Below, one piece after another: positions 4,624-18,320 of a DNA stretch of 45,272 nucleotides. The DNA comes from Acidimicrobiia bacterium (GTDB lineage Bacteria > Actinomycetota > Acidimicrobiia > Spongiisociales > ZC4RG35). The stretch covers positions 1-45,272 of the forward strand of contig JBGTGL010000035.1 in the NCBI GenBank assembly GCA_041746755.1, in the 5' to 3' direction. Below the pieces are notes generated by a model, which had not been told where the DNA came from, made no database searches, and saw only the letters and a program-made list of their open reading frames with translations. Each line of letters starts with the position of its first letter. The stretch's first letter is position 1. Both the position numbers and the translations under genes were made by a program.

Positions 4624-6309
4624 CTACTGGTAGCTTACGAATATTGGGGTGGGTACCTTCCCCATCGTATGTTCTGGTGATGGCGTGGGCGAATCCTCGT
4701 CGTAGAAGTTCTTCCAGCCCCACTTCCAGTGGTCGTCCTCCCAACCCTTTGTGAGCACTTCGAAAGTGGTGTCCTTGGTGGCGATCGGTCCCTGGCCATC
4801 CATCTGGATAACCATCTGCAATTCCGGTCGTTGCTTCAGAGTGTCCCGGTTCTCAATCATGAACTCCCGGAATTGGTGGACGATGATCATCTTTTGAGGG
4901 AGGCCGTTGTCGCGGACCAGGTCGGCGAGCCAGTCGACTACCTGGTTGACTTCAGCCGCGTCGACCCTCCCAACCTGGCGAAGGTGGACCTCATCGGACT
5001 TCAACCGCCACTCCGGGTCGAGGGCCAATCCGACATGGGGGAGTAGGAGAAGCTCTTCATACATTTTCGCCTGCGACAGGAAATCTTCGCGGCCGCTTTG
5101 AAGGTCGAGGATCACGTAGGCGCCCTTTTCGGCGGCAAGGTCGGTCCAGGGGATGTACGTCGAAACCGGCCACTCGAAGCTGTAGTCGCCGTCCTCGGTT
5201 ATGTCCGCTGCGGCAACGGAAGCCATGACTTCGAAGGTGGGGATAGCTTGATGCCCGTCGGCCTCATACTCGGTGAGCAGCGGTGCCATTCTGTCCAGGG
5301 TTTCCTGGGGCCCCTGCTCCCCGAGAACGCCCAGCGCTGAACCGTTGGGATGACCGTAGAAAGCAACGTACCGCTTCGGTCGCTCATCGCCGAGGATGGA
5401 GAACCCTCCACCGGGGAGCTGTTTTCCGTTGAGGAGGACAGCGAGTTCCCAGTCGCTGGTTTCGGGAACCGCCCCTATGAATCGAAGCGTGGATGGGTCA
5501 CGTCCGGAGAGGGCAGTTCCCACTTCGGGATATCCGAGAATGTCGCTCGAGTCGATTGCAACCACCTGGGCGCCAACCGCTTCACCGGTGCCCGCGGCGA
5601 GAAGGATCGTGACGGGGTCGGCCGCATCAACCAGCCAAACCCGATTTGCATCCGAAGGTTGGGCCAGAGCAGCGACGATCTCGTCCGAATTGAGGGTGGG
5701 CGCGAGTGCGGCGGTTGTGTCTCCGGGGGTGGTTTGGGGAAGGACAACACGGTCCCGAGCAGCGATCGCGGCGACAGTTTCGGTGATAGTCGTGGTGTCG
5801 GGTGTTGCCGGAAGTCGTATCTCGGAACTGACGCCGAGTACGTCGCTTGCTTCGGCAACGGCATCAGAAATCGAGTGACGGGATACGTTGGAACCAGGGG
5901 GGAGGGTTATCTCGAGATCTCCGATGATGTGGACATGAAGTGGTTTCAGCCGGCCAATCTCAGCGGCGAGTTGAGGATGGGGGAGCAGCAGCGGTCCTTG
6001 GAACGCCGCAGCAAGCTGTGCCCCGGCGGCCAGGGCGTTGATATCAACGGGGTCAGCGACCACTACCTCGTCAGCGCAGACGAAGAGCTCACCCGACAAA
6101 AAGAGGGCGTCAGTAGCGGGGGCTCCGGTTGAGACTGATCCCCCAACACCGGTGTCACGGACACAACTCCTTGCGCCAGGGTCGGTTGTCGTCGTTTCCT
6201 GGGCCGAGTTGGGAACCGACGATCCCCCATTGGACGACTCCGTCGAGGGGCTTTCGGAACAGGCGGCGACGACGAGACAGATTGCGATGAGGCGCGCGAT
6301 AGTTTTCAT
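4624..6309 (-). CDS. Large secreted lipoprotein, function unknown (conserved W/D/H-rich C-terminal domain)
   Basis: 561 aa with a lipoprotein signal (LIAICLVVAACSES) and a Ser/Thr-rich linker. The C-terminal ~230 aa look globular (FYGHP, LALDPEW, IVHQF, WKWGWKNFYD). Any hydrolase assignment would be speculation. Confidence 0.6.
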   Translation of the reverse strand: MKTIARLIAICLVVAACSESPSTESSNGGSSVPNSAQETTTTDPGARSCVRDTGVGGSVSTGAPATDALFLSGELFVCADEVVVADPVDINALAAGAQLAAAFQGPLLLPHPQLAAEIGRLKPLHVHIIGDLEITLPPGSNVSRHSISDAVAEASDVLGVSSEIRLPATPDTTTITETVAAIAARDRVVLPQTTPGDTTAALAPTLNSDEIVAALAQPSDANRVWLVDAADPVTILLAAGTGEAVGAQVVAIDSSDILGYPEVGTALSGRDPSTLRFIGAVPETSDWELAVLLNGKQLPGGGFSILGDERPKRYVAFYGHPNGSALGVLGEQGPQETLDRMAPLLTEYEADGHQAIPTFEVMASVAAADITEDGDYSFEWPVSTYIPWTDLAAEKGAYVILDLQSGREDFLSQAKMYEELLLLPHVGLALDPEWRLKSDEVHLRQVGRVDAAEVNQVVDWLADLVRDNGLPQKMIIVHQFREFMIENRDTLKQRPELQMVIQMDGQGPIATKDTTFEVLTKGWEDDHWKWGWKNFYDEDSPTPSPEHTMGKVPTPIFVSYQ

Positions 6310-7061: not shown

Positions 7062-7478
7062 CTAGTTCTGATTCCGCAGGTGGAGCGCAGACTCGGTGAG
7101 TTTGTCGGTTAGAAACTCGAGAAGTGGTCCGGACACTTCAGTTTGGCTCATGGCTGCGGTCATACATCTCATCCACTCAGCAGCCTCAAAGTCGCCGATC
7201 GCAAAGGGTAAGTGGCGCATCCGGAGTCGAGGATGTCCCCGTTTCTCGATGTAGAGGGGAGGGCCGCCCATCCAGCCGGTCATGAATTCGAAGAGCTTGG
7301 TTCGAGACACCGAGGTGTCATCGGGAAGCATCTCACGGAGGACCGGTGACTCCACTTCGACAATGTCGTAGAACTTATTGACCAGTTCGCTCACCCGGTC
7401 GATACCGCCGATTTCGAGGAAGGGGGTCGCAGCGTCGCCCCAAGGGTGTTTGGTAGAACCATGAGATGAGGGGATCAC
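7062..7478 (-). CDS. glbO: Group II truncated haemoglobin (GlbO/YjbI-like)
   Basis: The C-terminal 138 aa of track ORF 7062..8114 carry FYDIV...FMTGWMGGPPLYIEKRGHPRLRMRHLPFAIG...AEWMRCM, typical of trHbO. I use the in-frame GTG at 7478. The rest of the 350-aa ORF is antisense to a membrane gene and to rnpB. Confidence 0.8.
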   Translation of the reverse strand: MIPSSHGSTKHPWGDAATPFLEIGGIDRVSELVNKFYDIVEVESPVLREMLPDDTSVSRTKLFEFMTGWMGGPPLYIEKRGHPRLRMRHLPFAIGDFEAAEWMRCMTAAMSQTEVSGPLLEFLTDKLTESALHLRNQN

Positions 7479-7535
7479 CAGTCGATTATCCCAACTTCCA
7501 GAGGTTTCACCAAGGTATCGGGCTATGTTGGCCCG

Positions 7536-7916
7536 ATGCTGGCTGCATTGAATGTGAGCGCCGTCGCCCTCGGAGTGGCCGGCGGAGGGTTGACGGCCAC
7601 CATCGTGGCACTGGGGTTGGGTGGCCTCTTGTCGGTGGTCAACGTACCCAACGGTGCTGATCTCGGTCTTTTGGTGGGGATCCTCGTGGGGCTGGTATTT
7701 GGCGGCTGGCTGGCCGGTCGGTTTGCGGTTCATTCCCATCGATTCCATGGGTCGATCGTCGGATTGGCGATTACCGCTTTGATCGTGCTTCTCGCCAGCC
7801 TTGGTGCTGCTGAGATCTCGATACTCACCGTGGTTTGGATGGCCTTTATCGCAATCGTGGTGGCTGGCCTCGGAGGATGGCTGGGAGGACGCAACCGGCC
7901 GCAACCGGTAGAATGA
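7536..7916 (+). CDS. Small integral membrane protein (4 predicted TM segments)
   Basis: 126 aa, Gly/Leu/Val-rich with clear hydrophobic periodicity. The stop lies 5 nt before rnpB. Confidence 0.55.
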   Translation: MLAALNVSAVALGVAGGGLTATIVALGLGGLLSVVNVPNGADLGLLVGILVGLVFGGWLAGRFAVHSHRFHGSIVGLAITALIVLLASLGAAEISILTVVWMAFIAIVVAGLGGWLGGRNRPQPVE

Positions 7917-7921
7917 ATAGT

Positions 7922-8289
7922 GCGAGCCTGTCGGACGGCCGCGGCTCCGCTTTTGCGGAGGTGAGGAAAGTCCGGACTCCACAGGGCATGGTGCTGGGTA
8001 ACTCCCAGGCGGGGTGACCCGACGGAAAGTGCAGCAGAAACCAGACCGCCGATGGTCCTCGGACACAGGCAAGGGTGAAACGGTGGTGTAAGAGACCACC
8101 AGCGTCCCGGGCAACCGGGTCGGCTTGTAAACCCCACCAGGAGCAAGGCCAAGCAGGGATCAGCGGCCCGCTGAACATCCCGGGTAGGCCGCATGAGCGT
8201 GTTGGTGACAGCACGCCTAGATGGATGGTCGTCGTCTGTCGGCCCGAGGGCCGACAGAGTACAGAATCCGGCTTACAGACAGGCTCGCA
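7922..8289 (+). ncRNA. rnpB: RNase P RNA, bacterial type A
   Basis: The universal P4 strands are present: GAGGAAAGTCCGGACTCCACAGGGCA (7963-) and ACAGAATCCGGCTTACAG (8261-). GGTGAAACGGTGGTGTAAGAGACCACCAG is also present. P1 pairing is CGAGCCTGTC (7923-7932) with GACAGGCTCG (8278-8287). Confidence 0.95.
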
Positions 8290-8403
8290 GTCTTCCTTGC
8301 CGAAATCCGGCGTTCTCGATCTCCTGAGCAATAGCCTGGGTTCGTTTCGAAACCTTTGTCGCGTCGGTCCGGTCGAAACGTTGGCTCTAAAGGAGGAGTG
8401 CAA

Positions 8404-9060
8404 TTGGTAATTAACAAATATCTCGCCGAGTTTATGGGGACATGGATCCTCGTATTTGGTGGATCAATGGCGATACTCGCCGTTGTGTCGCTCGGGGGTG
8501 GTGAAGATCCATCCAAATTGATCATCATCGCCTTTGCTTTTGGGCTTTCACTCCTGGCCGGGATCTGGGCTGTGGGCCACGTGTCCGGTGCCCATTTCAA
8601 CCCGGCGGTCACGCTGAGCATGTTGCTCGACGGCAGGATCTCGTTCAGCGACGCCATCGGCTATTGGATCGGCCAGTTTGCCGGAGGGATCGTCGCGTCG
8701 GTCACGGTTGCCGGTGCGTCCAGTGTCGAGGCGGTGGCGCAAACGATGACAACTCATACAGACCAAACTGCAGCCATCCTTCTGGAGATCGCTTTGACTG
8801 CGATATTCGTTTGGGTGATCCTGGCTGTGACCAAAACCGGTGGCAATCATGCCCCGGCAGCCATCGCTCTGACCCTGGTGGCTGTCCACCTGGCCGGAAT
8901 TCCGTTCTCCGGTTCCTCGGTGAACCCGGCACGATCTTTCGGCCCGGCCGTCGTCTCAGGTGATTTTTCCAATGTCTGGGTTTACGTGGTATTCCCGTTC
9001 GTCGGTGGAGTCGTTGCCTGGATGCTCTACCGGTTGTTCCCGGTTCCGTCCGAGACTTAA
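8404..9060 (+). CDS. aqpZ: MIP family aquaporin (AqpZ-like)
   Basis: Two NPA boxes (HFNPAVT and SVNPARS) and six hydrophobic segments. I prefer the TTG at 8404, which lies 7 nt after AAAGGAGG (8389-8396). GTG 8398 or the track start 8356 are alternatives. Confidence 0.9.
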   Translation: MVINKYLAEFMGTWILVFGGSMAILAVVSLGGGEDPSKLIIIAFAFGLSLLAGIWAVGHVSGAHFNPAVTLSMLLDGRISFSDAIGYWIGQFAGGIVASVTVAGASSVEAVAQTMTTHTDQTAAILLEIALTAIFVWVILAVTKTGGNHAPAAIALTLVAVHLAGIPFSGSSVNPARSFGPAVVSGDFSNVWVYVVFPFVGGVVAWMLYRLFPVPSET

Positions 9061-9065
9061 CCAAC

Positions 9066-9108
9066 AAAAAAAAAATGGGCGATCTGTCGGTCAGATCGCC
9101 CATTTTTA
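9066..9108. terminator. Bidirectional intrinsic terminator between convergent genes
   Basis: Perfect 12-bp stem ATGGGCGATCTG (9075-9086) / CAGATCGCCCAT (9092-9103) with a 5-nt loop. It is flanked by A10 on one side and T5 on the other. Confidence 0.85.
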
Positions 9109-9685: not shown

Positions 9686-10288
9686 ATGAAGAAGGTCTTA
9701 CTCGCTGCATTGGTGGTGGCGGTCGCTGCGTGTGCCACCCCCGGCGGTTCGGCCACCACCTCTAATTCATCATCGGATACCGTCGCCAGCTCGGAGACCC
9801 CGACAACCAGTTCGTCCGCAGACCCGACATCTTCAACCGCCCCCGGCGAGACCGCCACTACGTCGAACCGACCGAAGGCCCCAGATTTCACACTGGAATT
9901 GGGCGACGGAGGCACTTACACCCTCTCAGAGGGTGATAAGCCGGTCTACATGGTCTTTTGGGCCGAGTGGTGACCCACCTGTCGACGGGAGTTGCCCGTC
10001 ATCGACAAACTATCAGCTGAATATGCAGACCGGGTTGACTTCGTTGCCCCCGCCTGGAAGTCGTCTTTTGCTGCAACTGAAGAGCGTGCCGATGAGCTCT
10101 TTCTCGTTGGGAATGTCCTGTGGGGTCTCGACGAAGACGAAACAATCTTCGGTCTATATGGTGTTCCGTACCAGCCCGTCACGGTGTTGATCGCTGGTGA
10201 TGACACCGTGGTCGAGTCCTGGCCCGGACTCCGCGAGGAGGCCGAGATCAGAGCCGCCCTCGACAACTTGATTGCCCTCTCCGGATGA
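9686..10288 (+). CDS. TlpA/ResA-like thiol:disulfide oxidoreductase lipoprotein with an in-frame TGA (9971-9973) at the first active-site Cys. Candidate selenoprotein (W-U-P-T-C), otherwise a pseudogene.
   Basis: Track ORFs 9686..9973 and 9992..10288 share one frame. Read-through gives the lipobox LVVAVAACAT, an S/T/P linker, VYMVFWAEW-[TGA]-PTCRRELPVIDKL and then YGVPYQPVTVLI. This is a textbook TlpA fold with TGA where the nucleophilic Cys belongs. Confidence 0.65.
9980..10007 (+). promoter_or_regulatory. SECIS-like hairpin downstream of the in-frame UGA
   Basis: TGTCGA-CGGG / loop AGTTG / CCCG-(TCA bulge)-TCGACA. The apical loop starts 17 nt after the UGA and has a G in its first two positions, which fits descriptions of bacterial SECIS geometry. 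Confidence 0.45.
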
Positions 10289-10311: not shown

Positions 10312-10710
10312 ATGGAGCAACGCTCGAAAAGGGACAACGATGCCTTCCAAGCCGGGTTTTTCGCGCTGGAGATGAATCTCATCGACCCGGCAACCCGTCG
10401 ATCCGCGGTAGCCGTTGGCAAGATGATCCATGACGACTTTGTCGAGTTCGGGAGTAGTGGAGATCGCTACGACCGCGGCCATGCAATCGAGGTGATGGCC
10501 TCAGGGCTAGCGGGCGAGGTCCTCATCAAGGACTTCGAGGCACTTACGCTGGCTCCCTCGGTCGTACTGTGCACGTACCGTTCGATCGGAGAAACGGGGC
10601 GGGAGGCGCGACGCAGTTCGATATGGGTCGAGTCGGACAACGAGTGGAAGATCATCTTCCATCAGGGAACTCGGGTCCCGGACTCCTGGATGGACCGCTC
10701 CGGTCGATAA
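10312..10710 (+). CDS. SnoaL-like / DUF4440 (NTF2-fold) protein
   Basis: 132 aa. The size fits, and the pattern (FVEFGSSG...YDR...; C-terminal W..ES..WKIIFHQGT) is typical of DUF4440 proteins. Confidence 0.55.
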   Translation: MEQRSKRDNDAFQAGFFALEMNLIDPATRRSAVAVGKMIHDDFVEFGSSGDRYDRGHAIEVMASGLAGEVLIKDFEALTLAPSVVLCTYRSIGETGREARRSSIWVESDNEWKIIFHQGTRVPDSWMDRSGR

Positions 10711-10746: not shown

Positions 10747-12177
10747 TTGAGGCAATTCGAACTTTTCATCGTGTACGCCGCCCTGTTTGCGGTTGCGTGG
10801 CCTGCCGTCTTCGGGGTCCGTCCCCGGCGTGGCATTGCGTCGGGCCTTCTCTTCATCGCAGCCATTGCCCAATTACAGGTCGAAGGTTTTCGCTATCAGA
10901 TGATTCCGCTCTATGCCCTGGCCTCAGGGTTGGCCGTTGGGGACATAGTTTTCCTGGATCGGACCCTGAAGTGGCCCAATCGCGTTTTGCGCGCTATCGG
11001 CGGCACCGTCATCATCGCATTGGCTGCTGCCCTGCCGTTTCTCCTCCCGGTTCCGGAGTTGCCTGTTCCGTCGGGGCCCGACGACATTGGGACGGTCGTC
11101 GTCGAGCTGGTCGATACCACTCGAGAGGAGACCTACGGTCCCAAGCCCGGCGGGCCTAGGGAACTGGTGGTGCAGATCTGGTACCCGGCGATCACCGACT
11201 CCACTTCTGAACCCGTGGGAATCCATCCCGACTGGGATGTGGTCGGACCCGCCCTGTCGAAGAATCTTGGATTCCCGGGATGGTTCCTGTCCCATCTCCA
11301 ATACACCGAATCTCACACGTTCGAGTCGGTGCCCGTCGCCCCCGGTTCCTATCCGGTCATCGTTTTTAGCCACGGGTGGACCGGATATCGCTCCATTGCC
11401 CTCAATCAGATCGAAACCCTGGTTTCTAACGGGTACATCGTGATCGCCCCCGATCACACCTACGGTGCCGTGGCCACCAGGTTCGCCGACGGTGAGGTGG
11501 TCGAATACGACAGCGCAGCCCTGCCAGACGCTGATTCCGTATCTGTTGAGGAATACGATCAGGCTTCGGAGACGCTCGTCGATGTGTATGCCGACGACAT
11601 CACCAGCATCATCAATGCCCTGGAAAAAGGGGTTGGAGGCGTATTCGGAGATTATGTCGAGAGCATGGATCTGACCCGTATCGGCCTGTACGGCCATTCC
11701 ACTGGTGGTGGTGCTGCGGTCAAAGTCTGCCTACTCGATGAGCGTTGTGATGCCGTTCTCGGGATGGATCCCTGGGTGGAGCCGTTTTCGGACAAAGTAC
11801 TAGCCACGACGGCGCAACGGCCCGCCATGTACCTCCGCTCGGCGGAGTGGCAGGAGAAGACCAATGACGCCATCCTGCGCGGTGTCGCCGAACGGAGCGA
11901 GAGTGTTTCGTATTGGGTGGGGATTGAAGGAACAACCCACAACGACTTCGTGATGACACCTCTGTTCTCGCCGATTGCCGACGACCTCGGTTTGCGAGGC
12001 CCTATCCCCGCCGGGCGAATAATTCCGATTGTCAATCAGTATCTGCTCGGGTTCTTTGACGTGTTCCTGCTCGGTACCGGTTCGGCGTCGATCGACAACG
12101 TCCTCTTCGACGAGGTAACACTGGAAATCTTGGGATCGGTTGACGTGGCGGATCCGGTTACCGAAGAAGGCCCCTAA
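10747..12177 (+). CDS. Membrane-anchored alpha/beta hydrolase (PAF-acetylhydrolase/lipase-like)
   Basis: 476 aa. It has about 4 N-terminal TM segments followed by a hydrolase domain with FSHGW (oxyanion region) and the nucleophile elbow YGHSTGGG. The TTG start is uncertain. Confidence 0.65.
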   Translation: MRQFELFIVYAALFAVAWPAVFGVRPRRGIASGLLFIAAIAQLQVEGFRYQMIPLYALASGLAVGDIVFLDRTLKWPNRVLRAIGGTVIIALAAALPFLLPVPELPVPSGPDDIGTVVVELVDTTREETYGPKPGGPRELVVQIWYPAITDSTSEPVGIHPDWDVVGPALSKNLGFPGWFLSHLQYTESHTFESVPVAPGSYPVIVFSHGWTGYRSIALNQIETLVSNGYIVIAPDHTYGAVATRFADGEVVEYDSAALPDADSVSVEEYDQASETLVDVYADDITSIINALEKGVGGVFGDYVESMDLTRIGLYGHSTGGGAAVKVCLLDERCDAVLGMDPWVEPFSDKVLATTAQRPAMYLRSAEWQEKTNDAILRGVAERSESVSYWVGIEGTTHNDFVMTPLFSPIADDLGLRGPIPAGRIIPIVNQYLLGFFDVFLLGTGSASIDNVLFDEVTLEILGSVDVADPVTEEGP

Positions 12178-12767
12178 GCGTCCGGTCTTTGTTGGGTGTC
12201 GCCGGTGGTCTGTTGTCCCGGCGTTTCGCCGGCGATGATCGAGTCGAGCGTCGCCCCCAGTATCAGGGCGTCTGATTCACCGACGATTTTGCCCACAACT
12301 ATCCCTGCCTCGTCGATGAAAAAGGTCTCGGGAATGCCAAAGACACCGTAGGCAATCGCGGCGCGGCTCCGGTCGTCCTGTAGATATGTGGTGGCGTCCG
12401 AGACACCCGCGTCTTCGAGGTAGGCGAGCGTGGTGGACGGGTCTTCTTGATAGGCGATCTGGACGAACCTGACATTTTGATCGGCGAAGGCTTCTGAAGT
12501 GGCCACCAGGTCAGCGTGCTCCTTGCGGCATTCGAGGCACCAGGAGGCAAAGAAGTTGATCACGACGATCGTGCCCTTGAGGTCGGCCATGTCGAAGTTG
12601 GCCGATCCGTCGAGAAGTTCCAATTGAAGGACAGGTGCGGATTGTCCGAGAAGTGGTGACTCGACGAGGGCGGGGTCTCTCCCGAACCGACTGGCCAGCA
12701 CCACAGAGAAGACAACGGCGATGGCGGCGACAGCGAGAGCTCCGAACTTGAGCGCGCGACCGTTCAT
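12174..12767 (-). CDS. ccmG: Thiol:disulfide oxidoreductase CcmG/DsbE (TlpA family)
   Basis: N-terminal membrane anchor, then INFFASWCLECRKEH (CxxC) and GIPETFFID. The ATG at 12767 forms an ATGA overlap with the ccmH stop. It is the last gene of the ccm array. Confidence 0.85.
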   Translation of the reverse strand: MNGRALKFGALAVAAIAVVFSVVLASRFGRDPALVESPLLGQSAPVLQLELLDGSANFDMADLKGTIVVINFFASWCLECRKEHADLVATSEAFADQNVRFVQIAYQEDPSTTLAYLEDAGVSDATTYLQDDRSRAAIAYGVFGIPETFFIDEAGIVVGKIVGESDALILGATLDSIIAGETPGQQTTGDTQQRPDA

Positions 12768-13777
12768 ACGCAATCGTCGCCGGTACTGGCCAGGGCGAGG
12801 TCGGCCTCGACCCGGGCACGGGTATCATCGGAGAGGTCGGGCTGGGCGAGGATCTCTGCAAAGAGCGTCGAAGCGTCGACCGGGTTGTCGGCTCCACACC
12901 ACAAAACCTGTCCTTTGATGTAGAGGGCGACGGGAGAGCCCGGACTGAGTGCCAGGGCCTGGTCGAGGAGATCTGTCGCCGTCTCCACTTCTCCGTTTCC
13001 GTCGTATGCCATCCAACCAAGACGCACCAACGAAATAGTCGCTTGGTCGTTTGTGGCGATTGGAGACTCGGCCACCGCCAGGAAGTGGGGAAAGGCGTTG
13101 CGGTAGTCCCCGGTCTCGAAGTAGCGCTCGGCAAGAGCGAGGCGCATGCCGTTGATCTCGGTGTTGTCGAGGTTGGCGGCGATCACGGCCTCCATTGTCT
13201 CGTTGCTGACATCGTCGAGGTTATCCGTTCCGATCTCCGCTGCCCCCGAAGCGGCTCCGGCACCGTCTTGGATCAAAGCAGCTGCCACCCCCACGATTAG
13301 AACCAACCCGCCGATCACAATCAAACCGCCGATCAGACGGCGGTTGGCAAGGGCGGGCGCCGTCCGTTCGGCCGCCGGAGATATTGGCTCTTCCCCCGGA
13401 TGTCGTTTCCACCATGCAATTATCCCGATCCCCATGAGGAGAGCGGTCAGCGGTGCTAGCCAGAGAAGGAGGGTCGATCCCGAAGCTGGAGGATCGAGAA
13501 GTACGGCTCCGGTAAAAGACCCGAGCAATTCGCTGACGATTTCATCGTTCGAGGCTCCAGCGGCGACCCGCTCTTCAACCAAAGCCATCATGTCGACGGC
13601 CATACTCGCCGGCGAATCGGCGATCGATTCTCCCTGACAGACCGGGCACTTGATCCGGCTCCCGATCGACTCGACGCGGTCACCGGGGCTTTGGTTGGTC
13701 GCGACCAATCCAACGACCAGGACTGTCAAGAGGGCGATTAACCCGCCGACGACGATGTTTTTGACGCGATCAGACAT
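12764..13777 (-). CDS. ccmH: Cytochrome c-type biogenesis protein CcmH fused to a TPR (CcmI-like) C-terminal domain
   Basis: N-terminal TM followed by IKCPVCQGESIADS (the CcmH CxxC motif), a second TM, and then a ~170-aa helical-repeat region (YFETGDYRNAFPHF..., LDQALALSPGSPVALYIKGQVL). Confidence 0.8.
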   Translation of the reverse strand: MSDRVKNIVVGGLIALLTVLVVGLVATNQSPGDRVESIGSRIKCPVCQGESIADSPASMAVDMMALVEERVAAGASNDEIVSELLGSFTGAVLLDPPASGSTLLLWLAPLTALLMGIGIIAWWKRHPGEEPISPAAERTAPALANRRLIGGLIVIGGLVLIVGVAAALIQDGAGAASGAAEIGTDNLDDVSNETMEAVIAANLDNTEINGMRLALAERYFETGDYRNAFPHFLAVAESPIATNDQATISLVRLGWMAYDGNGEVETATDLLDQALALSPGSPVALYIKGQVLWCGADNPVDASTLFAEILAQPDLSDDTRARVEADLALASTGDDCV

Positions 13778-15794
13778 CGGCGCTTAGACGTTGGTCTGAC
13801 CGCCTTCGTTCCGACCTTCGCGCCCCCAGCGCCAGAAGACCACCGGCGGCAGTCACCAGGCCACCGATCCACAGCAGCCAGATCAAGGGAGACGTGTCCA
13901 ATGCCAGGGTTATCGACGCCGAATCGACATCGCGCAGGCTCAAATAGAGGTCGCCGCCCGGTCGGGTGAGGACAGCGGGTGTAACGATTCCGGCATTGTC
14001 ATTTGCGTAGAAATTCGCAGTTGGTTCCATGATCGCTACGAACTCAGCGCCGCGAAGCACCGTAATCCGGGCGCCTCGCACTGTCCGTTGCGGCTCATCG
14101 ATCTGGAATGGACTCTCGTAAACCAATTCATATCCGGCGAATTCGACTGAGTCTCCCGGCTCCATGACGACCACATCATGGAGGGCGAGGTTGGAGGCGA
14201 ATGCGATCCCGATCGCGACCAGCACAACACCGACATGACTCATCTGGCCAGCCCAGAAAGCCTGATCGCCCTTGACAACCTCAACGACCGCTGTGGACAT
14301 CGAGACATCAGTTTTAACGGATCGGGATCGGGCCTGGTCTGTCAAAAGCGCAACCAGTGTGCCGACAACAAATGCTCCCATCACGCAGGCGAGCACTACC
14401 CATCCCACCCGGGTGACGAAGAGGCCCACTGCCGCACCACAGGCGAGGGCAATCACGACGGGGAGCCGGATCCGCCCCCAAAGTTTTCCGCCATCGGCGG
14501 ACCCCCATGGGATCACCGGACCGATCCCCATAACGAGGAGCAAAGCGAAGGTCAGCGGGAGGGCGAGGCGGTTGTAAAAAGGCCCACCCACGCCCACCTG
14601 AGTCCCGGTGAAAGCCTCGAGAAAGAGCGGGTAGGTTGTTCCCACCAGGACGACAAACGCGTAGAGGGTGAGCAGCAGGTTGTTGGCGAGAAACGCACCT
14701 TCCCGGCTGAAAAGGGAATTCATTCTCGGGGCTGAACTGACCAGGTGGGAGCGAGCTGCGAAGAGGGCGAAGGAGCCGCCCAGCACCACCACCAGAAATC
14801 CCAGGAGGGCGGGCCCGATTGCCGATTGGGTGAATGAGTGGACCGAATTAATAGTTCCTGATCGAGTCAGGAACGTCCCGAGAATCGTCAACGAGAACAT
14901 CGATATCACCAGAACGAAATTCCAAGCTTGCAACATGTTGCGTCTCTGTTGGACTATCGCCGAATGGAGGAAGGCCGTCGCCACCAGCCACGGCATCAAA
15001 GATGCATTTTCTACCGGATCCCATGCCCAATAGCCACCCCACGAAAGGACCTCGTAGGCCCACCAGCCCCCGAGCAGGATCCCTGTTGTGAGGAAACTCC
15101 ATGCGACCAGGGTGGATCGGTGCGATCGGTACAGCCATTCCGGCCCGGGAACTCCCAGAGCCAGGGCGCTTATGGCGTATGCGAATGGGACTGTCAGGCC
15201 CACGTACCCCGCGTAGAGAATGGGCGGGTGAATGGCCATCAAGTAGTGGTTTTGGAGGAGGGGGTTGGGGCCCGCCCCTTCGAGGGGAGCCGAGGCGGTG
15301 GCCCATGGCCAGGGACTGGAATCGAGGCATGACCGCTCGGCAGCCAGAACGCACACCTCGAAGGGATTGGAGACGGTGATCATCAATCCAAAGAAGAAGA
15401 TCCCGACGAAGCTCATCACCGCCAATGCGCCCGCCCCGAGAGGGTCGGGCGACCGCCGATAATTGCGATAGACGATCCAGGTGAACACCGACAGGACCAG
15501 TCCCCACAGAACGATCGAACCTTCTAGCGCACCCCAAGCACTGGCCACATTGAACGGAAACGGAGTCGTGGAAGCGTGGTGATTGGCGACATAGGAGACG
15601 GAAAAGTCATTCGTCACCAGTGCGAGGACCAAAGCGACCATCGCGATGACCGAGCCGGAGAGGATAAGTTGGACCGGTGCGGTCAGACTGCCCTTTTTGC
15701 TGCGGGATCGTGCCACCCCGATCGAGCGCACCAACAAAAGGATGTAGCCGACGAGGCCCGCGAGTGCGCCCGCAGTGCCGAGAAATCCCAGCAT
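13770..15794 (-). CDS. ccmF: Cytochrome c haem lyase subunit CcmF
   Basis: 674 aa polytopic protein with the WWD motif WGGYWAWDPVENASLMPWL and conserved His residues. It is embedded between ccmE and ccmH. Confidence 0.95.
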   Translation of the reverse strand: MLGFLGTAGALAGLVGYILLLVRSIGVARSRSKKGSLTAPVQLILSGSVIAMVALVLALVTNDFSVSYVANHHASTTPFPFNVASAWGALEGSIVLWGLVLSVFTWIVYRNYRRSPDPLGAGALAVMSFVGIFFFGLMITVSNPFEVCVLAAERSCLDSSPWPWATASAPLEGAGPNPLLQNHYLMAIHPPILYAGYVGLTVPFAYAISALALGVPGPEWLYRSHRSTLVAWSFLTTGILLGGWWAYEVLSWGGYWAWDPVENASLMPWLVATAFLHSAIVQQRRNMLQAWNFVLVISMFSLTILGTFLTRSGTINSVHSFTQSAIGPALLGFLVVVLGGSFALFAARSHLVSSAPRMNSLFSREGAFLANNLLLTLYAFVVLVGTTYPLFLEAFTGTQVGVGGPFYNRLALPLTFALLLVMGIGPVIPWGSADGGKLWGRIRLPVVIALACGAAVGLFVTRVGWVVLACVMGAFVVGTLVALLTDQARSRSVKTDVSMSTAVVEVVKGDQAFWAGQMSHVGVVLVAIGIAFASNLALHDVVVMEPGDSVEFAGYELVYESPFQIDEPQRTVRGARITVLRGAEFVAIMEPTANFYANDNAGIVTPAVLTRPGGDLYLSLRDVDSASITLALDTSPLIWLLWIGGLVTAAGGLLALGARRSERRRSDQRLSADV

Positions 15795-16198
15795 CAGCTG
15801 CCCGCGGCCGTTCCCTCGTCGGGGATCTCGTAGTTCTCGTCGTGCTGAATCAAGGCCTGGGTCGCCACGTAGGTATCACCCAACCAGGCGCCGTCCAGCA
15901 AAACGGGCACGGTGTCGTCGAAGAGTGGGGGAGGGATGTTGACGAGTCGAACCGTAATGGTCGCACCCCCGTCCGTAACCTCGAATCGGAGATCGCTTGC
16001 ATCTTCTTCGAGGCTGCCTTCGACCACATTCCCCGCCAGCCGGAAAACCTCACCATCGGGGAAGTCGGCTCTTTGTTCGACCGCCTCGGTCGGGTAGAGG
16101 TAGTAGGTGAGATTGCTATCCAAGCTGACCAGGGACATCGCCACAATCAGGGCGATGATCCCCCCGATTCCGAAGAGGACCAGGCTCCTGTGTTCCAT
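15794..16198 (-). CDS. ccmE: Haem chaperone CcmE
   Basis: 134 aa with an N-terminal anchor and an OB-fold region (FRLAGNVVEGS). The haem-binding motif is IQHDENYEIP (H-x3-Y). The stop/start pair with ccmF shares one nucleotide (TGATG). Confidence 0.9.
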   Translation of the reverse strand: MEHRSLVLFGIGGIIALIVAMSLVSLDSNLTYYLYPTEAVEQRADFPDGEVFRLAGNVVEGSLEEDASDLRFEVTDGGATITVRLVNIPPPLFDDTVPVLLDGAWLGDTYVATQALIQHDENYEIPDEGTAAGS

Positions 16199-16200
16199 GG

Positions 16201-16305
16201 CTACTGCTCAGCCCGCTTCCGTCTCAGGTGCAGGTAGACGGCGTAACCGAGAGTCGCACCATAGACCACTGCGTAAGTACCGATGACGATGGCTGCGTCA
16301 GACAT
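16201..16305 (-). CDS. ccmD: Haem exporter protein CcmD (small single-TM)
   Basis: 34 aa, MSDAAIVIGTYAVVYGATLGYAVYLHLRRKRAEQ. The position between ccmC and ccmE, the size and the TM-plus-basic-tail layout fit CcmD. It overlaps the end of ccmC by 8 nt. Confidence 0.7.
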   Translation of the reverse strand: MSDAAIVIGTYAVVYGATLGYAVYLHLRRKRAEQ

Positions 16306-17008
16306 CTTGAATATCCGATAGTCGGGGAGGTGAGACCGCGTCGCCGGCGACTTCTGTGGAGACCGAGCGGGCGGCCTCGAGTCGGCCAACATAGATTCGG
16401 GCCATCATCAGTGCGACGTAGAGGATGGTGAATGCGCCGAGATTGATCAACATCGGCAACAGAATTTCGGTCGGCATCGTCGACCCGTCGGGCCGGATCG
16501 ACTGGGTTTGGTGCAGTGTTCGAACCAGGTTCACCGAGAAATAGACCAGCGGCACCTGGATTACCGCGACCGTCCCCAAAATTGCGGCTCTTTTTGCCCT
16601 CACAGCCGGGTCAGCGATCGAGCGGCGCAGGGCGAGGTAGGCGAGGTAGACGAAGATCATCACCGCAGTTGTGGTCAGCCGGGCGTCGCCCCAATCCCAG
16701 GCCTGGCCCCAAACCGCTTGACCCCAAACCATTCCGGTGAAGACGCCCACAATCGCATAGAGGACGCCAATTTCGGCGGAGGCGCCGGCGAGCGAGTCCC
16801 AACGTTGCTTCTTCGAGATCAAATACCCGATCGATCCTAGGGCAGTTATCCCAAAGGCAAGGAAGGCAAGCCACAGAGTAGGAACGTGGATGTAGATCAT
16901 CCGGGTGAATTCCCCCTGAAGGTTGTCCAACGGGGCGGTGAAGGCGCGATATCCCCCGTAGACGAGGGCGATACCCGCCAGGAAGAACATGACCTGAATT
17001 CGTCTCAT
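16298..17008 (-). CDS. ccmC: Haem exporter/haem-handling protein CcmC
   Basis: 236 aa starting at MRRIQVMFFLAG, with the WWD motif WGQAVWGQAWDWGDARL. There is an ATGA overlap with the ccmB stop at 17005-17008. The track's 402-aa N-terminal extension is Arg/Gly/Pro-rich junk overlapping ccmB. Confidence 0.9.
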   Translation of the reverse strand: MRRIQVMFFLAGIALVYGGYRAFTAPLDNLQGEFTRMIYIHVPTLWLAFLAFGITALGSIGYLISKKQRWDSLAGASAEIGVLYAIVGVFTGMVWGQAVWGQAWDWGDARLTTTAVMIFVYLAYLALRRSIADPAVRAKRAAILGTVAVIQVPLVYFSVNLVRTLHQTQSIRPDGSTMPTEILLPMLINLGAFTILYVALMMARIYVGRLEAARSVSTEVAGDAVSPPRLSDIQDV

Positions 17009-17679
17009 CGTGATGCTTCCTCCAGCGGCCTCGACAGTCCGACTCCGGCGACCAGTAGGGCCAAGTCGGTGGTGATAAGAAGCAGTATCCAAATCAGGAT
17101 ACCGCTGTTTCGTTCCATAGCTTCCAGGATCTGAGATCCCCCGAGGATCACAGGAATGACGAGCGGAGCGACGATCAACGAGGCCAACGAGGTTCTGCTT
17201 CTCGTGCCAGCGGCAACCTCCCCGGCGAGAGTGGAGAGGGCAGCCAGCCCGATAGCGGTCAGAAATAGGGCCGCGGCCTGCGGTCCCACCCATCCCATCG
17301 GGAGTTCGGGGGCGAAGAAAAGGACCATCGTGAGAAACAGGATGGCCATGAAGGCCACGATGATCAGGGCCGATGCGGCGGTTCTGCCCAGAAAGCGGGC
17401 GGCCGGGTCGAGCCCGAGGAGAGCCATCAAATCGCGCCGGGTGGGGCTTTCCAGCGCCGCTGTGCGCAGAGCGAGCTGCATCCCGAAGAGAATGCTGATC
17501 GCCCAAAACACTGCAGGTCCGACATTGCGAAGGACGGCAACCTCGCCACCCATGGCGAGCGAGAAGATAATCAACGTCACTACCGCAAAAGGCAAAACGA
17601 TCCGGAATGTGTCGCCCGTTCGCCTTTCCACCACGAGATCCGCCCGCGCCACCTCTCGAATCTGAGTAGAGAGGCTCAT
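17005..17679 (-). CDS. ccmB: Haem exporter permease CcmB
   Basis: 224 aa with six hydrophobic segments. Its position is directly after ccmA with a 4-nt overlap. Confidence 0.85.
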   Translation of the reverse strand: MSLSTQIREVARADLVVERRTGDTFRIVLPFAVVTLIIFSLAMGGEVAVLRNVGPAVFWAISILFGMQLALRTAALESPTRRDLMALLGLDPAARFLGRTAASALIIVAFMAILFLTMVLFFAPELPMGWVGPQAAALFLTAIGLAALSTLAGEVAAGTRSRTSLASLIVAPLVIPVILGGSQILEAMERNSGILIWILLLITTDLALLVAGVGLSRPLEEASR

Positions 17680-18320
17680 GCGAACCCCTCTAGCCGCCCC
17701 GATGCCAGTCGTCGTTTGTGCATGAACCGATCGCCGAGCTGGGAGGTCTGATGGGAGACGCCAACCACGATGCCCGACTTGTTGAGAGTCAGCCCGACGA
17801 GGGCGTCGACCAGCTCCCTTGCCTCCACATCGAGCCCGCTCTTCGCCTCGTCGAGAAGCAACAGCTTTGGTTTGGACACCAGTAGCCAGGCGATTTCGGT
17901 GCGTCGGCGCATCCCAAAACTCGAGTCTCCCACCCGGCGGTCCGCGGCCTTTTCCATTCCAACCACTTCGAGGGCACGTAAACAGTCTTCGAAAGGATTA
18001 CCCGACAAGCGGGCGAAGTGAAGAAGGTTCTCCGAGATCGTCAACTCCTCGATGAGGGCTGGCGTATGGGTGATCAATCCGATGTCCGAGCGCACCTGGC
18101 GGATTTCGGGGCTCCCAATGTTTTGCCCGAGGATCGAACCCTGGCCACGGGTCGGCTTCAGTAGCGTGGCGAGGAGACGGAGGAGGGTGGTCTTCCCGCT
18201 CCCATTGGGACCGACTACCGCAAGAGACTCTCCGCCGGACAGAGAAAGAGAAACCTCGATAAGCACCGACTTGCCGCCGAGGACGACGTCGACATCGGCC
18301 AGTTCTACTGATGCCGTCAC
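17676..18320 (-). CDS. ccmA: Haem exporter ATP-binding protein CcmA
   Basis: Walker A GPNGSGKTT and Walker B LLLLDEA. The signature loop is degenerate (SSFGM). The GTG start overlaps the argH stop (GTGA). Confidence 0.85.
   Translation of the reverse strand: MTASVELADVDVVLGGKSVLIEVSLSLSGGESLAVVGPNGSGKTTLLRLLATLLKPTRGQGSILGQNIGSPEIRQVRSDIGLITHTPALIEELTISENLLHFARLSGNPFEDCLRALEVVGMEKAADRRVGDSSFGMRRRTEIAWLLVSKPKLLLLDEAKSGLDVEARELVDALVGLTLNKSGIVVGVSHQTSQLGDRFMHKRRLASGRLEGFA

Follow-up and report, generated by a model that had tools for sequence, protein, structure and literature searches.

The 45,272-nucleotide stretch of Acidimicrobiia DNA analysed here (contig JBGTGL010000035.1, below called the window) carries at 9686-10288, on the plus strand, a redoxin gene whose reading frame runs from an ATG at 9686 to a TGA at 10288 and is broken solely by another TGA at 9971-9973. 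Reading through this codon joins two open reading frames (ORFs), 9686..9973 and 9992..10288, with no frameshift and no further stop, and yields a product of 200 residues. It begins with MKKVLLAALVVAVAAC, continues with a stretch rich in Ser, Thr and Pro, reads PVYMVFWAEW-[TGA]-PTCRRELPVIDKL around the active site (UGA, then PTCRRELP), and closes with an intact C-terminal half that includes YGVPYQPVTVLI and the motif VPYQPVTVLI. The internal TGA occupies the first Cys of the FWAEW-C-xx-C motif of TlpA/ResA-type redoxins, and Pfam recognises the readthrough protein as Redoxin (47.3 bits, cutoff 26.6) and AhpC-TSA (41.9 bits, cutoff 26). An earlier sequence-only reading of the window had described two ORFs in one frame parted by TGA, and a 200-residue readthrough lipoprotein of redoxin type with its stop at the first active-site Cys; both descriptions are borne out. 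It had further proposed that the TGA encodes selenocysteine (Sec, U), with a hairpin downstream acting as a selenocysteine insertion sequence (SECIS, or bSECIS for the bacterial type). On the comparative evidence given below, I consider it about 90% probable that this is a genuine selenoprotein gene with UGA96 recoded as Sec. The features of the gene are as follows.

9686..10288, plus strand: predicted selenoprotein coding sequence, 200 codons including Sec96, for a TlpA/ResA-like thiol-disulfide oxidoreductase lipoprotein (single frame, Pfam scores, Cys orthologues)
9686..9733, plus strand: predicted lipoprotein signal peptide with lipobox V-A-A-C, the Cys16 codon being 9731-9733 (sequence pattern)
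9734..9874, plus strand: S/T/P-rich tether, residues 17-63, probably disordered (composition; structural model of the orthologue P0001)
9971..9973, plus strand: candidate Sec-UGA codon, residue 96, the presumed attacking nucleophile of U-P-T-C (TGA in 37/37 Sec-type genes)
9980..9982, plus strand: TGT codon of the presumed resolving Cys99 (Cys in 37/37 Sec-type genes)
9980..10007, plus strand: candidate bSECIS hairpin, overlapping codons C99-R-R-E102-L-P104-V-I-D (folding, invariance, covariation)
10175..10177, plus strand: Pro164, the presumed cis-Pro, in the motif VPYQPVTVLI (invariant column; cis inferred from the family motif)
10286..10288, plus strand: true terminator, again TGA, with no hairpin behind it (sequence)

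A scan of one genome per GTDB species returned 41 orthologous loci, nearly all from metagenome-assembled genomes (MAGs) labelled Acidimicrobiia. Thirty-six of the 41 carry TGA at this codon (37 genes, with two copies in locus L034), five carry TGC or TGT, and none carries TAA or TAG. Identities of the full-length Cys orthologues range over 49-83%, and the Cys-type loci share the neighbourhood of the window gene: a MIP channel, an AIG2-like gene, the redoxin, a DUF4440 gene, an alpha/beta hydrolase and the convergent ccmG-H-F...A genes. Given this identical gene neighbourhood, the Cys-type genes are orthologues and not paralogues, and the question raised by the sequence-only reading, whether Cys or Sec occupies this column in orthologues, is answered by a Sec/Cys pair within one and the same synteny. 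In L034 (CBDCBK010000010.1, Acidimicrobiia) two Sec-type paralogues stand about 1.2 kb apart, at 8873 and 10106; they read U-PVC and U-PAC, and each has the SECIS core. Another contig, L018 (CAXMPS010000290.1), is labelled uncultured Gammaproteobacteria bacterium and holds an Acidimicrobiia-type Sec-redoxin in full synteny (MIP, AIG2, DUF4440, hydrolase, ccm); it is probably mis-binned.

Protein collections tell the same story in another form. The readthrough protein, with U replaced by C, was searched against 5.8 billion protein clusters, which gave 63 full-length matches of about 190 residues reading FWAEWCxxC and 55 clusters of 110-260 residues, every one ending exactly at ...VFWAEW. The sequence-only reading had held that truncated orthologues would speak against recoding, whereas these 55 stubs are gene-caller artefacts, since callers stop at a Sec codon, and are themselves a signature of Sec. 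Among the matches from this collection no full-length member of the clade annotated with U was found, and at NCBI the Sec-type members are named 'hypothetical protein' (e.g. HSG79376.1) and the Cys orthologues 'TlpA disulfide reductase family protein'. One record (P0059, L085:99-716, JGI Ga0568846_0286704) reads FWAEWWGSC, with Trp at the Sec site; as the L085 DNA reads TGA, this Trp is an artefact of the gene caller.

In the 37 orthologous genes another 100-104 codons follow the TGA before the next stop (117 in the second copy of L034), and the frames end at the same C-terminus. Pairwise differences among the TGA-type genes are 0.32/0.26/0.57 at codon positions 1/2/3 after the UGA and 0.18/0.19/0.51 before it, which supports the view that the downstream frame evolves as coding sequence under purifying selection. 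The earlier argument that the intact cis-Pro loop speaks against decay is in keeping with this, substitution being of the coding type and other stops being absent. Cys99 is encoded by TGT in 27 and TGC in 10 of the 37 Sec-type genes; it comes after the UGA and before the TTG at 9992, so that its invariance indicates translation of the stretch from one to the other. Across the family alignment, columns W95, C96, C99 and P164 are invariant and E102 and P104 are kept in at least 90%, so that the family-wide motif is W-U/C-x-x-C-x-x-E-x-P plus Pro164. Cys16 is likewise kept in at least 90%, and the strict lipobox pattern is present in 48 of the 55 Sec-type N-terminal fragments, with near-matches in most others; from this conserved pattern the protein is predicted to be exported and lipid-anchored at Cys16.

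The hairpin at 9980-10007 folds as the sequence-only reading had drawn it: 9980-9989 pairs with 9995-10000 and 10004-10007 (6 bp + 4 bp), with a 3-nt bulge. Its 17-nt core, 9984-10000, is GACGGG-AGUUG-CCCGUC, with the loop AGUUG at 9990-9994 and GGGAGUUGCCC as the apical hairpin; the core begins 10 nt after the UGA and 16 nt separate the UGA from the loop. Published consensus rules for bSECIS elements specify a loop of 3-9 nt, an upper stem of 4-16 bp, a minimum free energy of at most -7.5 kcal/mol, a G at loop position 1 or 2 with G or U directly after it, and 16-37 nt from UGA to loop. The present hairpin lies within all of these limits (G at position 2 of AGUUG and then U, 6-7 bp, 16 nt, and -9.2 kcal/mol for the 17-nt core by itself). 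The variant record L085 has the loop AGCUC instead of AGUUG. No Rfam family matches the hairpin, the search returning only noise at E = 5-10.

What sets this hairpin apart is its conservation among relatives. The core CGGGAGUUGCCCG is unchanged in 37/37 TGA-type genes, every synonymous site included, and codons +5 to +8 are CGG GAG TTG CCC in each of them, a codon entropy of zero; other invariant residues (Gly-21, Leu-16, Pro-10, Ala-3) have entropies of about 1-1.8 bits, and at other Leu positions these genes seldom use TTG. In the five species-representative Cys-type genes (CPVC) the corresponding, mostly identical residues are coded CTC/CTG/CTT and CCG/CCC, and the hairpin is not formed. 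By this codon comparison the hairpin is conserved more strongly than its coding role demands, and it is a feature of UGA-type genes only. The pairing itself also covaries. Pair 14-30 (alignment columns) joins the second base of codon +4 (Arg/Gln/Leu/Lys) to the synonymous third base of Val +9 and is GC in 26, AU in 5, GU in 3 and UA in 1, never unpaired; pair 15-29 is AU in 24, GU in 10 and GC in 1. Overall 95.9% of cells are paired, against 28-79% in controls with the 3' arm slid, and RNAalifold independently returned the same 6-bp stem and 5-nt loop. Conservation beyond the need of the protein and covariation at pair 14-30 were among the checks suggested by the sequence-only reading, and both came out in its favour.

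The closest Cys-type relatives, 74-78% identical and reading CPTC, have a decaying hairpin, or 'fossil SECIS'. In L083:969-1562 (TGC) the core is intact and a change of CGA to CGT breaks pair 15-29; in L084:10001-10573 (TGT) the 3' arm is mutated from CCC GTC to CCA ATC. A neighbour-joining tree of 104 proteins requires at least seven Sec/Cys changes, with Cys clades nested within Sec lineages. Together the fossil hairpins and the tree suggest that Sec is old in this redoxin family and has been replaced by Cys repeatedly.

A metagenome scan with a 16-nt core listed 120 stretches (at least 120 exist). Among the matches listed, 32 are the redoxin gene, all with TGA; 85 lie in unrelated contexts without an open-frame TGA just upstream and were taken as chance; and three more have an open-frame TGA just upstream (L125, L099 and L184). 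L125 is a variant of the redoxin family that reads FWADW-U-SVC. L099 (contig Ga0272441_10240478, TGA at 573, minus strand) reads INFWSST-U-GPCRRELPVL after a lipobox ATLAC, and its protein is a distinct TlpA-like seleno-lipoprotein, 32% identical to that of the window, which scores below every family cutoff of the curated NCBIfam selenoprotein models. The SECIS core of its gene, GACGGGAGUUGCCCGU, is identical and equally spaced from the TGA. It seems that the SECIS is tied to the CxxC-RRELP coding motif and is common to distant TlpA-like families.

Several observations weigh against recoding as Sec, or against reading too much into it. Taken as a single sequence, the 60-nt fold (-14.6 kcal/mol) has z = -1.36, and 18 of 200 shuffles are as stable, so that the case for the hairpin is a wholly comparative one; the earlier claim of a SECIS-like hairpin stands as regards the bSECIS constraints, conservation and covariation, and falls as regards statistical distinction on its own. 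Four of the six core pairs are invariant and hence uninformative on pairing, the conserved R-E-L-P peptide accounts for part of the nucleotide conservation, and the control slid by +3 is 79% paired with a higher covariation score, which repeated GTC codons explain. A spacing of 16 nt only just falls within the bSECIS range, at its low end. A sigma-70-type promoter was sought without success. The neighbouring ccm operon is convergent, not co-transcribed, and has its own CcmG, and the function and substrate of the redoxin are read from homology and synteny. Finally, neither the window nor 0.92 Mb of orthologous flanks yielded selA, selB, selD or tRNA-Sec. ARAGORN was run on the window, the 41 loci and the 0.92 Mb, about 40 ORFs of the window were compared with Pfam and NCBIfam, and SelA/B/D from E. 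coli and Planctomycetota served as tblastn queries against the 0.92 Mb; the only matches belong to an unrelated Tepidisphaeraceae locus (L080), with none in the Acidimicrobiia DNA searched, and the window holds no tRNA by ARAGORN. As sel genes are usually unlinked to their target genes, the absence of the machinery near the redoxin is unsurprising. Elsewhere in the class the machinery is on record: Peng et al. (2016) count 15 selenoproteins in Ilumatobacter coccineus and 10 in I. nonamiensis, both scored as SelD/SelA/SelB-positive, 7 in Ca. Microthrix parvicella and none in Acidimicrobium ferrooxidans, and a 2026 preprint reports that every one of 84 complete Actinomarina genomes has about 5 selenoproteins together with selA, selC, selD and a divergent selB. 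Sec use is therefore documented in cultured and uncultured Acidimicrobiia, support that applies at the level of the class.

That no Sec machinery was found in the DNA searched also speaks for an account without selenium, in which a near-cognate tRNA (Trp, Cys or Arg) would suppress the UGA independently of any SECIS while the hairpin slows termination; the Trp that one public gene caller assigned (P0059/L085) points the same way. That W, however, comes from the caller and the DNA is TGA. Moreover, Cys codons are the sole sense codons at this column, Trp or Arg would inactivate the enzyme because the site is the catalytic nucleophile, the hairpin fits SelB-type bSECIS geometry and its loop rule, and Acidimicrobiia as a class are known Sec users, which makes readthrough of this kind improbable. 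The invariant nucleotides would find another explanation if the locus made two products, a 95-residue lipoprotein stub and a cytoplasmic fragment restarting at TTG 9992 with GGGAG as its ribosome-binding site: both the TTG and the GGGAG before it are invariant, and the ORF 9992-10288 appears in the mechanical ORF list. But GGGAG abuts the TTG with no spacer, the codons from UGA to TTG are under protein-level selection (Cys99 in 37/37), the stem pairs covary with a downstream Val codon, and the Cys orthologues are one continuous protein. Neither fragment would hold both active-site residues, and the C-terminal piece would be without a signal peptide. I give this restart very little credence.

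A lone in-frame stop in one sequence is, by itself, most often a lesion, be it a pseudogene, a nonsense mutation or an assembly error in the window. Here the same TGA recurs in 36 species-level genomes, at least 32 further metagenome contigs and 55 protein clusters, and downstream of it substitution is of the coding type with no frameshift or other stop; lesion and assembly error are effectively refuted by these two facts and retain hardly any probability. Reassignment of UGA to sense throughout the genome, as in genetic codes 4 or 25, has nothing to recommend it beyond the in-frame TGA itself. TGA ends 19 of the 34 Pfam-supported ORFs of the window and, among the terminators of the 37 Sec-type genes (TGA 26, TAG 9, TAA 2), 26, that of 9686-10288 included, in line with the earlier remark that TGA is a normal stop elsewhere and the code is not reassigned. 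When about 0.85 Mb of related DNA was scanned blindly for in-frame TGA codons that are conserved, the redoxin and no other gene emerged; a regex search for the same SECIS in other genes likewise returned the redoxin only. The TGA terminators and the blind scan refute reassignment. The Sec interpretation of the TGA, which the sequence-only reading had put forward, is supported by the Sec/Cys pair, the conservation and covariation of the hairpin, and purifying selection downstream.

If UGA96 is recoded as Sec, the route would be the standard bacterial one, in which SelB-GTP-Sec-tRNA(Sec) binds the 17-nt hairpin, itself formed from the codons of the conserved C-R-R-E-L-P-V motif, and UGA96 is decoded as Sec. 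The product would be exported and held outside the membrane by a lipid anchor on Cys16 and a disordered S/T/P-rich tether, presenting a ResA/TlpA-type thioredoxin fold with a U-P-T-C active site. Sec96 would attack a substrate disulfide and Cys99 would resolve the mixed selenenylsulfide; the oxidised Se-S form would presumably be re-reduced by a CcdA/DsbD-type membrane electron shuttle, a putative partner. The data show the conserved UGA, its pairing with Cys, translation past it, the conserved hairpin of Sec-type genes, the fold, the lipobox pattern and the synteny; that residue 96 is Sec, that the protein is lipidated and works as a reductase, and what donates its electrons and serves as its substrate I infer.

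The fold itself was modelled with AlphaFold on P0001, the nearest natural Cys orthologue. The model has a predicted local distance difference test (pLDDT) score of 87, with the N-terminal ~55 residues disordered; the region equivalent to the tether scores 52-70 and is without secondary structure. The active-site Cys93 stands immediately before helix 94-110 and caps it. The best structural match is B. subtilis ResA (1st9; template modelling (TM) score 0.91, 1.4 A), and further structural relatives are M. tuberculosis DsbF/DsbE, the pneumococcal lipoproteins Etrx1/Etrx2, and CcmG. A profile search of the PDB ranked 4hqs best (2.6e-20), followed by 4hqz, 2yp6, 3ios and 1lu4, and the profile alignment places UGA96 on the CxxC of 4hqs. 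Like ResA, TlpA and CcmG, the window protein has the motif W-C-x-x-C-x-x-E-x-P (Glu80 of ResA corresponds to E102 here) and would be membrane-tethered and outward-facing; unlike them, it would have Sec instead of the nucleophilic Cys and a lipobox instead of a transmembrane helix. It scores far below the NCBIfam cutoffs for CcmG/DsbE, ResA and TlpA proper (TIGR00385, 25.1 against 123; NF002854, 50.9 against 170; NF047696, 34.7 against 230).

Etrx1/Etrx2 of Streptococcus pneumoniae and DsbE (MPT53)/DsbF of M. tuberculosis, which account for the PDB profile matches, are Gram-positive TlpA-like proteins that are surface-exposed or lipid-anchored; all of them are CxxC. Their partners are CcdA and MsrAB2, neither of which is seen near the window gene. 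The NCBIfam families NF041057 (Rcas_1661), NF041054 (WAxxUGC_long) and NF053656 (TUGYCR) are exported or lipoprotein thioredoxin folds with Sec in the redox motif and thus offer a precedent for a seleno-lipoprotein redoxin. The motif here is, however, WAEW-U-x-x-C, and the scores for NF041057 (24.1 against a cutoff of 190) and NF041054 (21.9 against 300) are far too low, as with every other curated model. In its hairpin the gene resembles the E. coli fdhF/fdnG-type bSECIS, a stem-loop inside the coding sequence 3' of the UGA, with a small loop holding G then U and a spacing within the consensus, but the sequence is unrelated, the 16-nt spacing is the minimum, and there is no Rfam model. The N-terminal domain of vertebrate selenoprotein P, secreted and of UxxC type with TlpA and ResA as its nearest relatives in structure, is an analogy only; that protein is eukaryotic, has its SECIS in the 3' untranslated region and is not a lipoprotein.

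Selenoproteins of this general type are not new. UxxC selenoproteins with an AhpC-TSA/Redoxin fold appear in catalogues from 2005 onwards (Zhang, Fomenko & Gladyshev 2005; Zhang & Gladyshev 2008; Peng et al. 2016), as do thioredoxin-like seleno-lipoproteins. Analyses of the Sargasso Sea and Global Ocean Sampling (GOS) data list 'thiol-disulfide isomerase-like' (UxxC), 'Prx-like 1' (pfam00578, 225 sequences) and 'Prx-like 3' (pfam08534) families; a 2026 review table adds 'Redoxin family protein, UxxC' and 'UGC-containing TlpA family'; and the catalogued 'Prx-like thiol:disulfide oxidoreductase' type has the TlpA-like fold cd02966. The window gene shares with these the Pfam families, a Sec-first UxxC, a bSECIS immediately downstream and abundant Cys homologues. 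In a comparison with their published descriptions, it falls within the loose definition of the Zhang/Gladyshev UxxC families (Sec-first UxxC; pfam00578/pfam08534/cd02966 similarity). The Acidimicrobiia lipoprotein clade, its SECIS and its ccm synteny are not described in these catalogues, and the deep-Sep paper is silent on the family. The sequence-only reading, which called an exported Sec lipoprotein in this lineage notable, therefore overrated its novelty: UxxC redoxins are catalogued, an NCBIfam seleno-lipoprotein family exists, and Acidimicrobiia are known Sec users. The type of selenoprotein is already known; the Acidimicrobiia member is new and is mis-annotated as a truncated hypothetical protein.

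The finding does not overturn current understanding and is solid and useful, if unsurprising. At least 36 species-level genomes of Acidimicrobiia, and many metagenome contigs besides, have the gene called as a ~115-residue 'hypothetical protein' stub, an annotation that a family model permitting U would correct. Sec forms are unusually common in the family, whose species representatives number 36 with Sec and 5 with Cys, and its several independent Sec-to-Cys conversions, at different stages of SECIS decay, form a natural series for the evolution of a coding-embedded SECIS. The predicted anchor would place a selenoenzyme on the outward side of the membrane of aerobic soil and sediment actinobacteria, encoded consistently by a ccm operon, so that a connection of respiratory-chain assembly with the supply of selenium can be put to the test.

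Within the window that System I ccm operon occupies the minus strand downstream of the redoxin, beyond two genes on the plus strand:

10312-10710, plus strand: DUF4440 protein (Pfam)
10747-12177, plus strand: PAF-AH/dienelactone-hydrolase-like alpha/beta hydrolase (Pfam)
12174..18320, minus strand: complete System I ccm operon, convergent (ccmG, ccmH, ccmF ... ccmA), as context outside the redoxin gene (Pfam/NCBIfam)

The gaps between redoxin, DUF4440 and hydrolase genes are 23 and 36 nt and hold no terminator-like site, and this gene order is conserved in most loci; judging from the gaps, the three are probably co-transcribed. The ccmG gene (12174-12773, minus strand) encodes a true CcmG (91.5 bits) with WCLEC, the Cys-type paralogue that the sequence-only reading had correctly recognised next door. 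The redoxin has a ccm operon 0.3-5 kb away in about 30 of the 41 loci, down to 49% identity, and in L021 and L035 the redoxin is directly tail-to-tail with ccmG. This conserved place hints that the redoxin reduces envelope thiols in connection with the assembly of cytochromes or oxidases. More speculatively, the Sec-redoxin could be a dedicated, ancestrally selenium-dependent part of envelope thiol reduction for cytochrome c (System I) or haem-copper oxidase assembly in aerobic Acidimicrobiia, with a motif-embedded SECIS that is shared (L099) and has been repeatedly lost, leaving fossil hairpins. A SECIS that lies within the CxxC-xxExP coding motif could be shared by distant TlpA-like families such as that of L099. 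I regard this larger proposal as doubtful at present; if true, the Sec-redoxin would be the first selenoprotein tied to cytochrome biogenesis.

Some smaller points concern the surrounding genes. Actinobacteria mostly use System II for cytochrome c biogenesis. In the ccm operon of the window, the ORF 16298-17506 (402 residues) is probably ccmB and ccmC merged; these are separate in L084 (CcmB 224 residues, CcmC 236), where a small CcmD-like gene and CcmE also lie between CcmC and CcmF. The sole Rfam match of the window is a class A RNase P RNA at 7923-8291 (plus strand, 311 bits), and the minus-strand ORFs that the mechanical list places over it (7062-8114, 7730-8194 and 7846-8403) are spurious or over-extended; in 7062-8114 only the C-terminal truncated-globin domain is real, which in L084 forms a gene of 139 residues. 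The ORF 4624-6309 (minus strand, 561 residues) has no Pfam domain and is syntenic in many loci at 51-89% identity. Lastly, a strong terminator-like hairpin at 9071-9107, with 16 bp flanked by an A-run and a T-run, lies between the convergent MIP channel gene (end 9060) and AIG2-like gene (end 9126) and probably terminates transcription in both directions.

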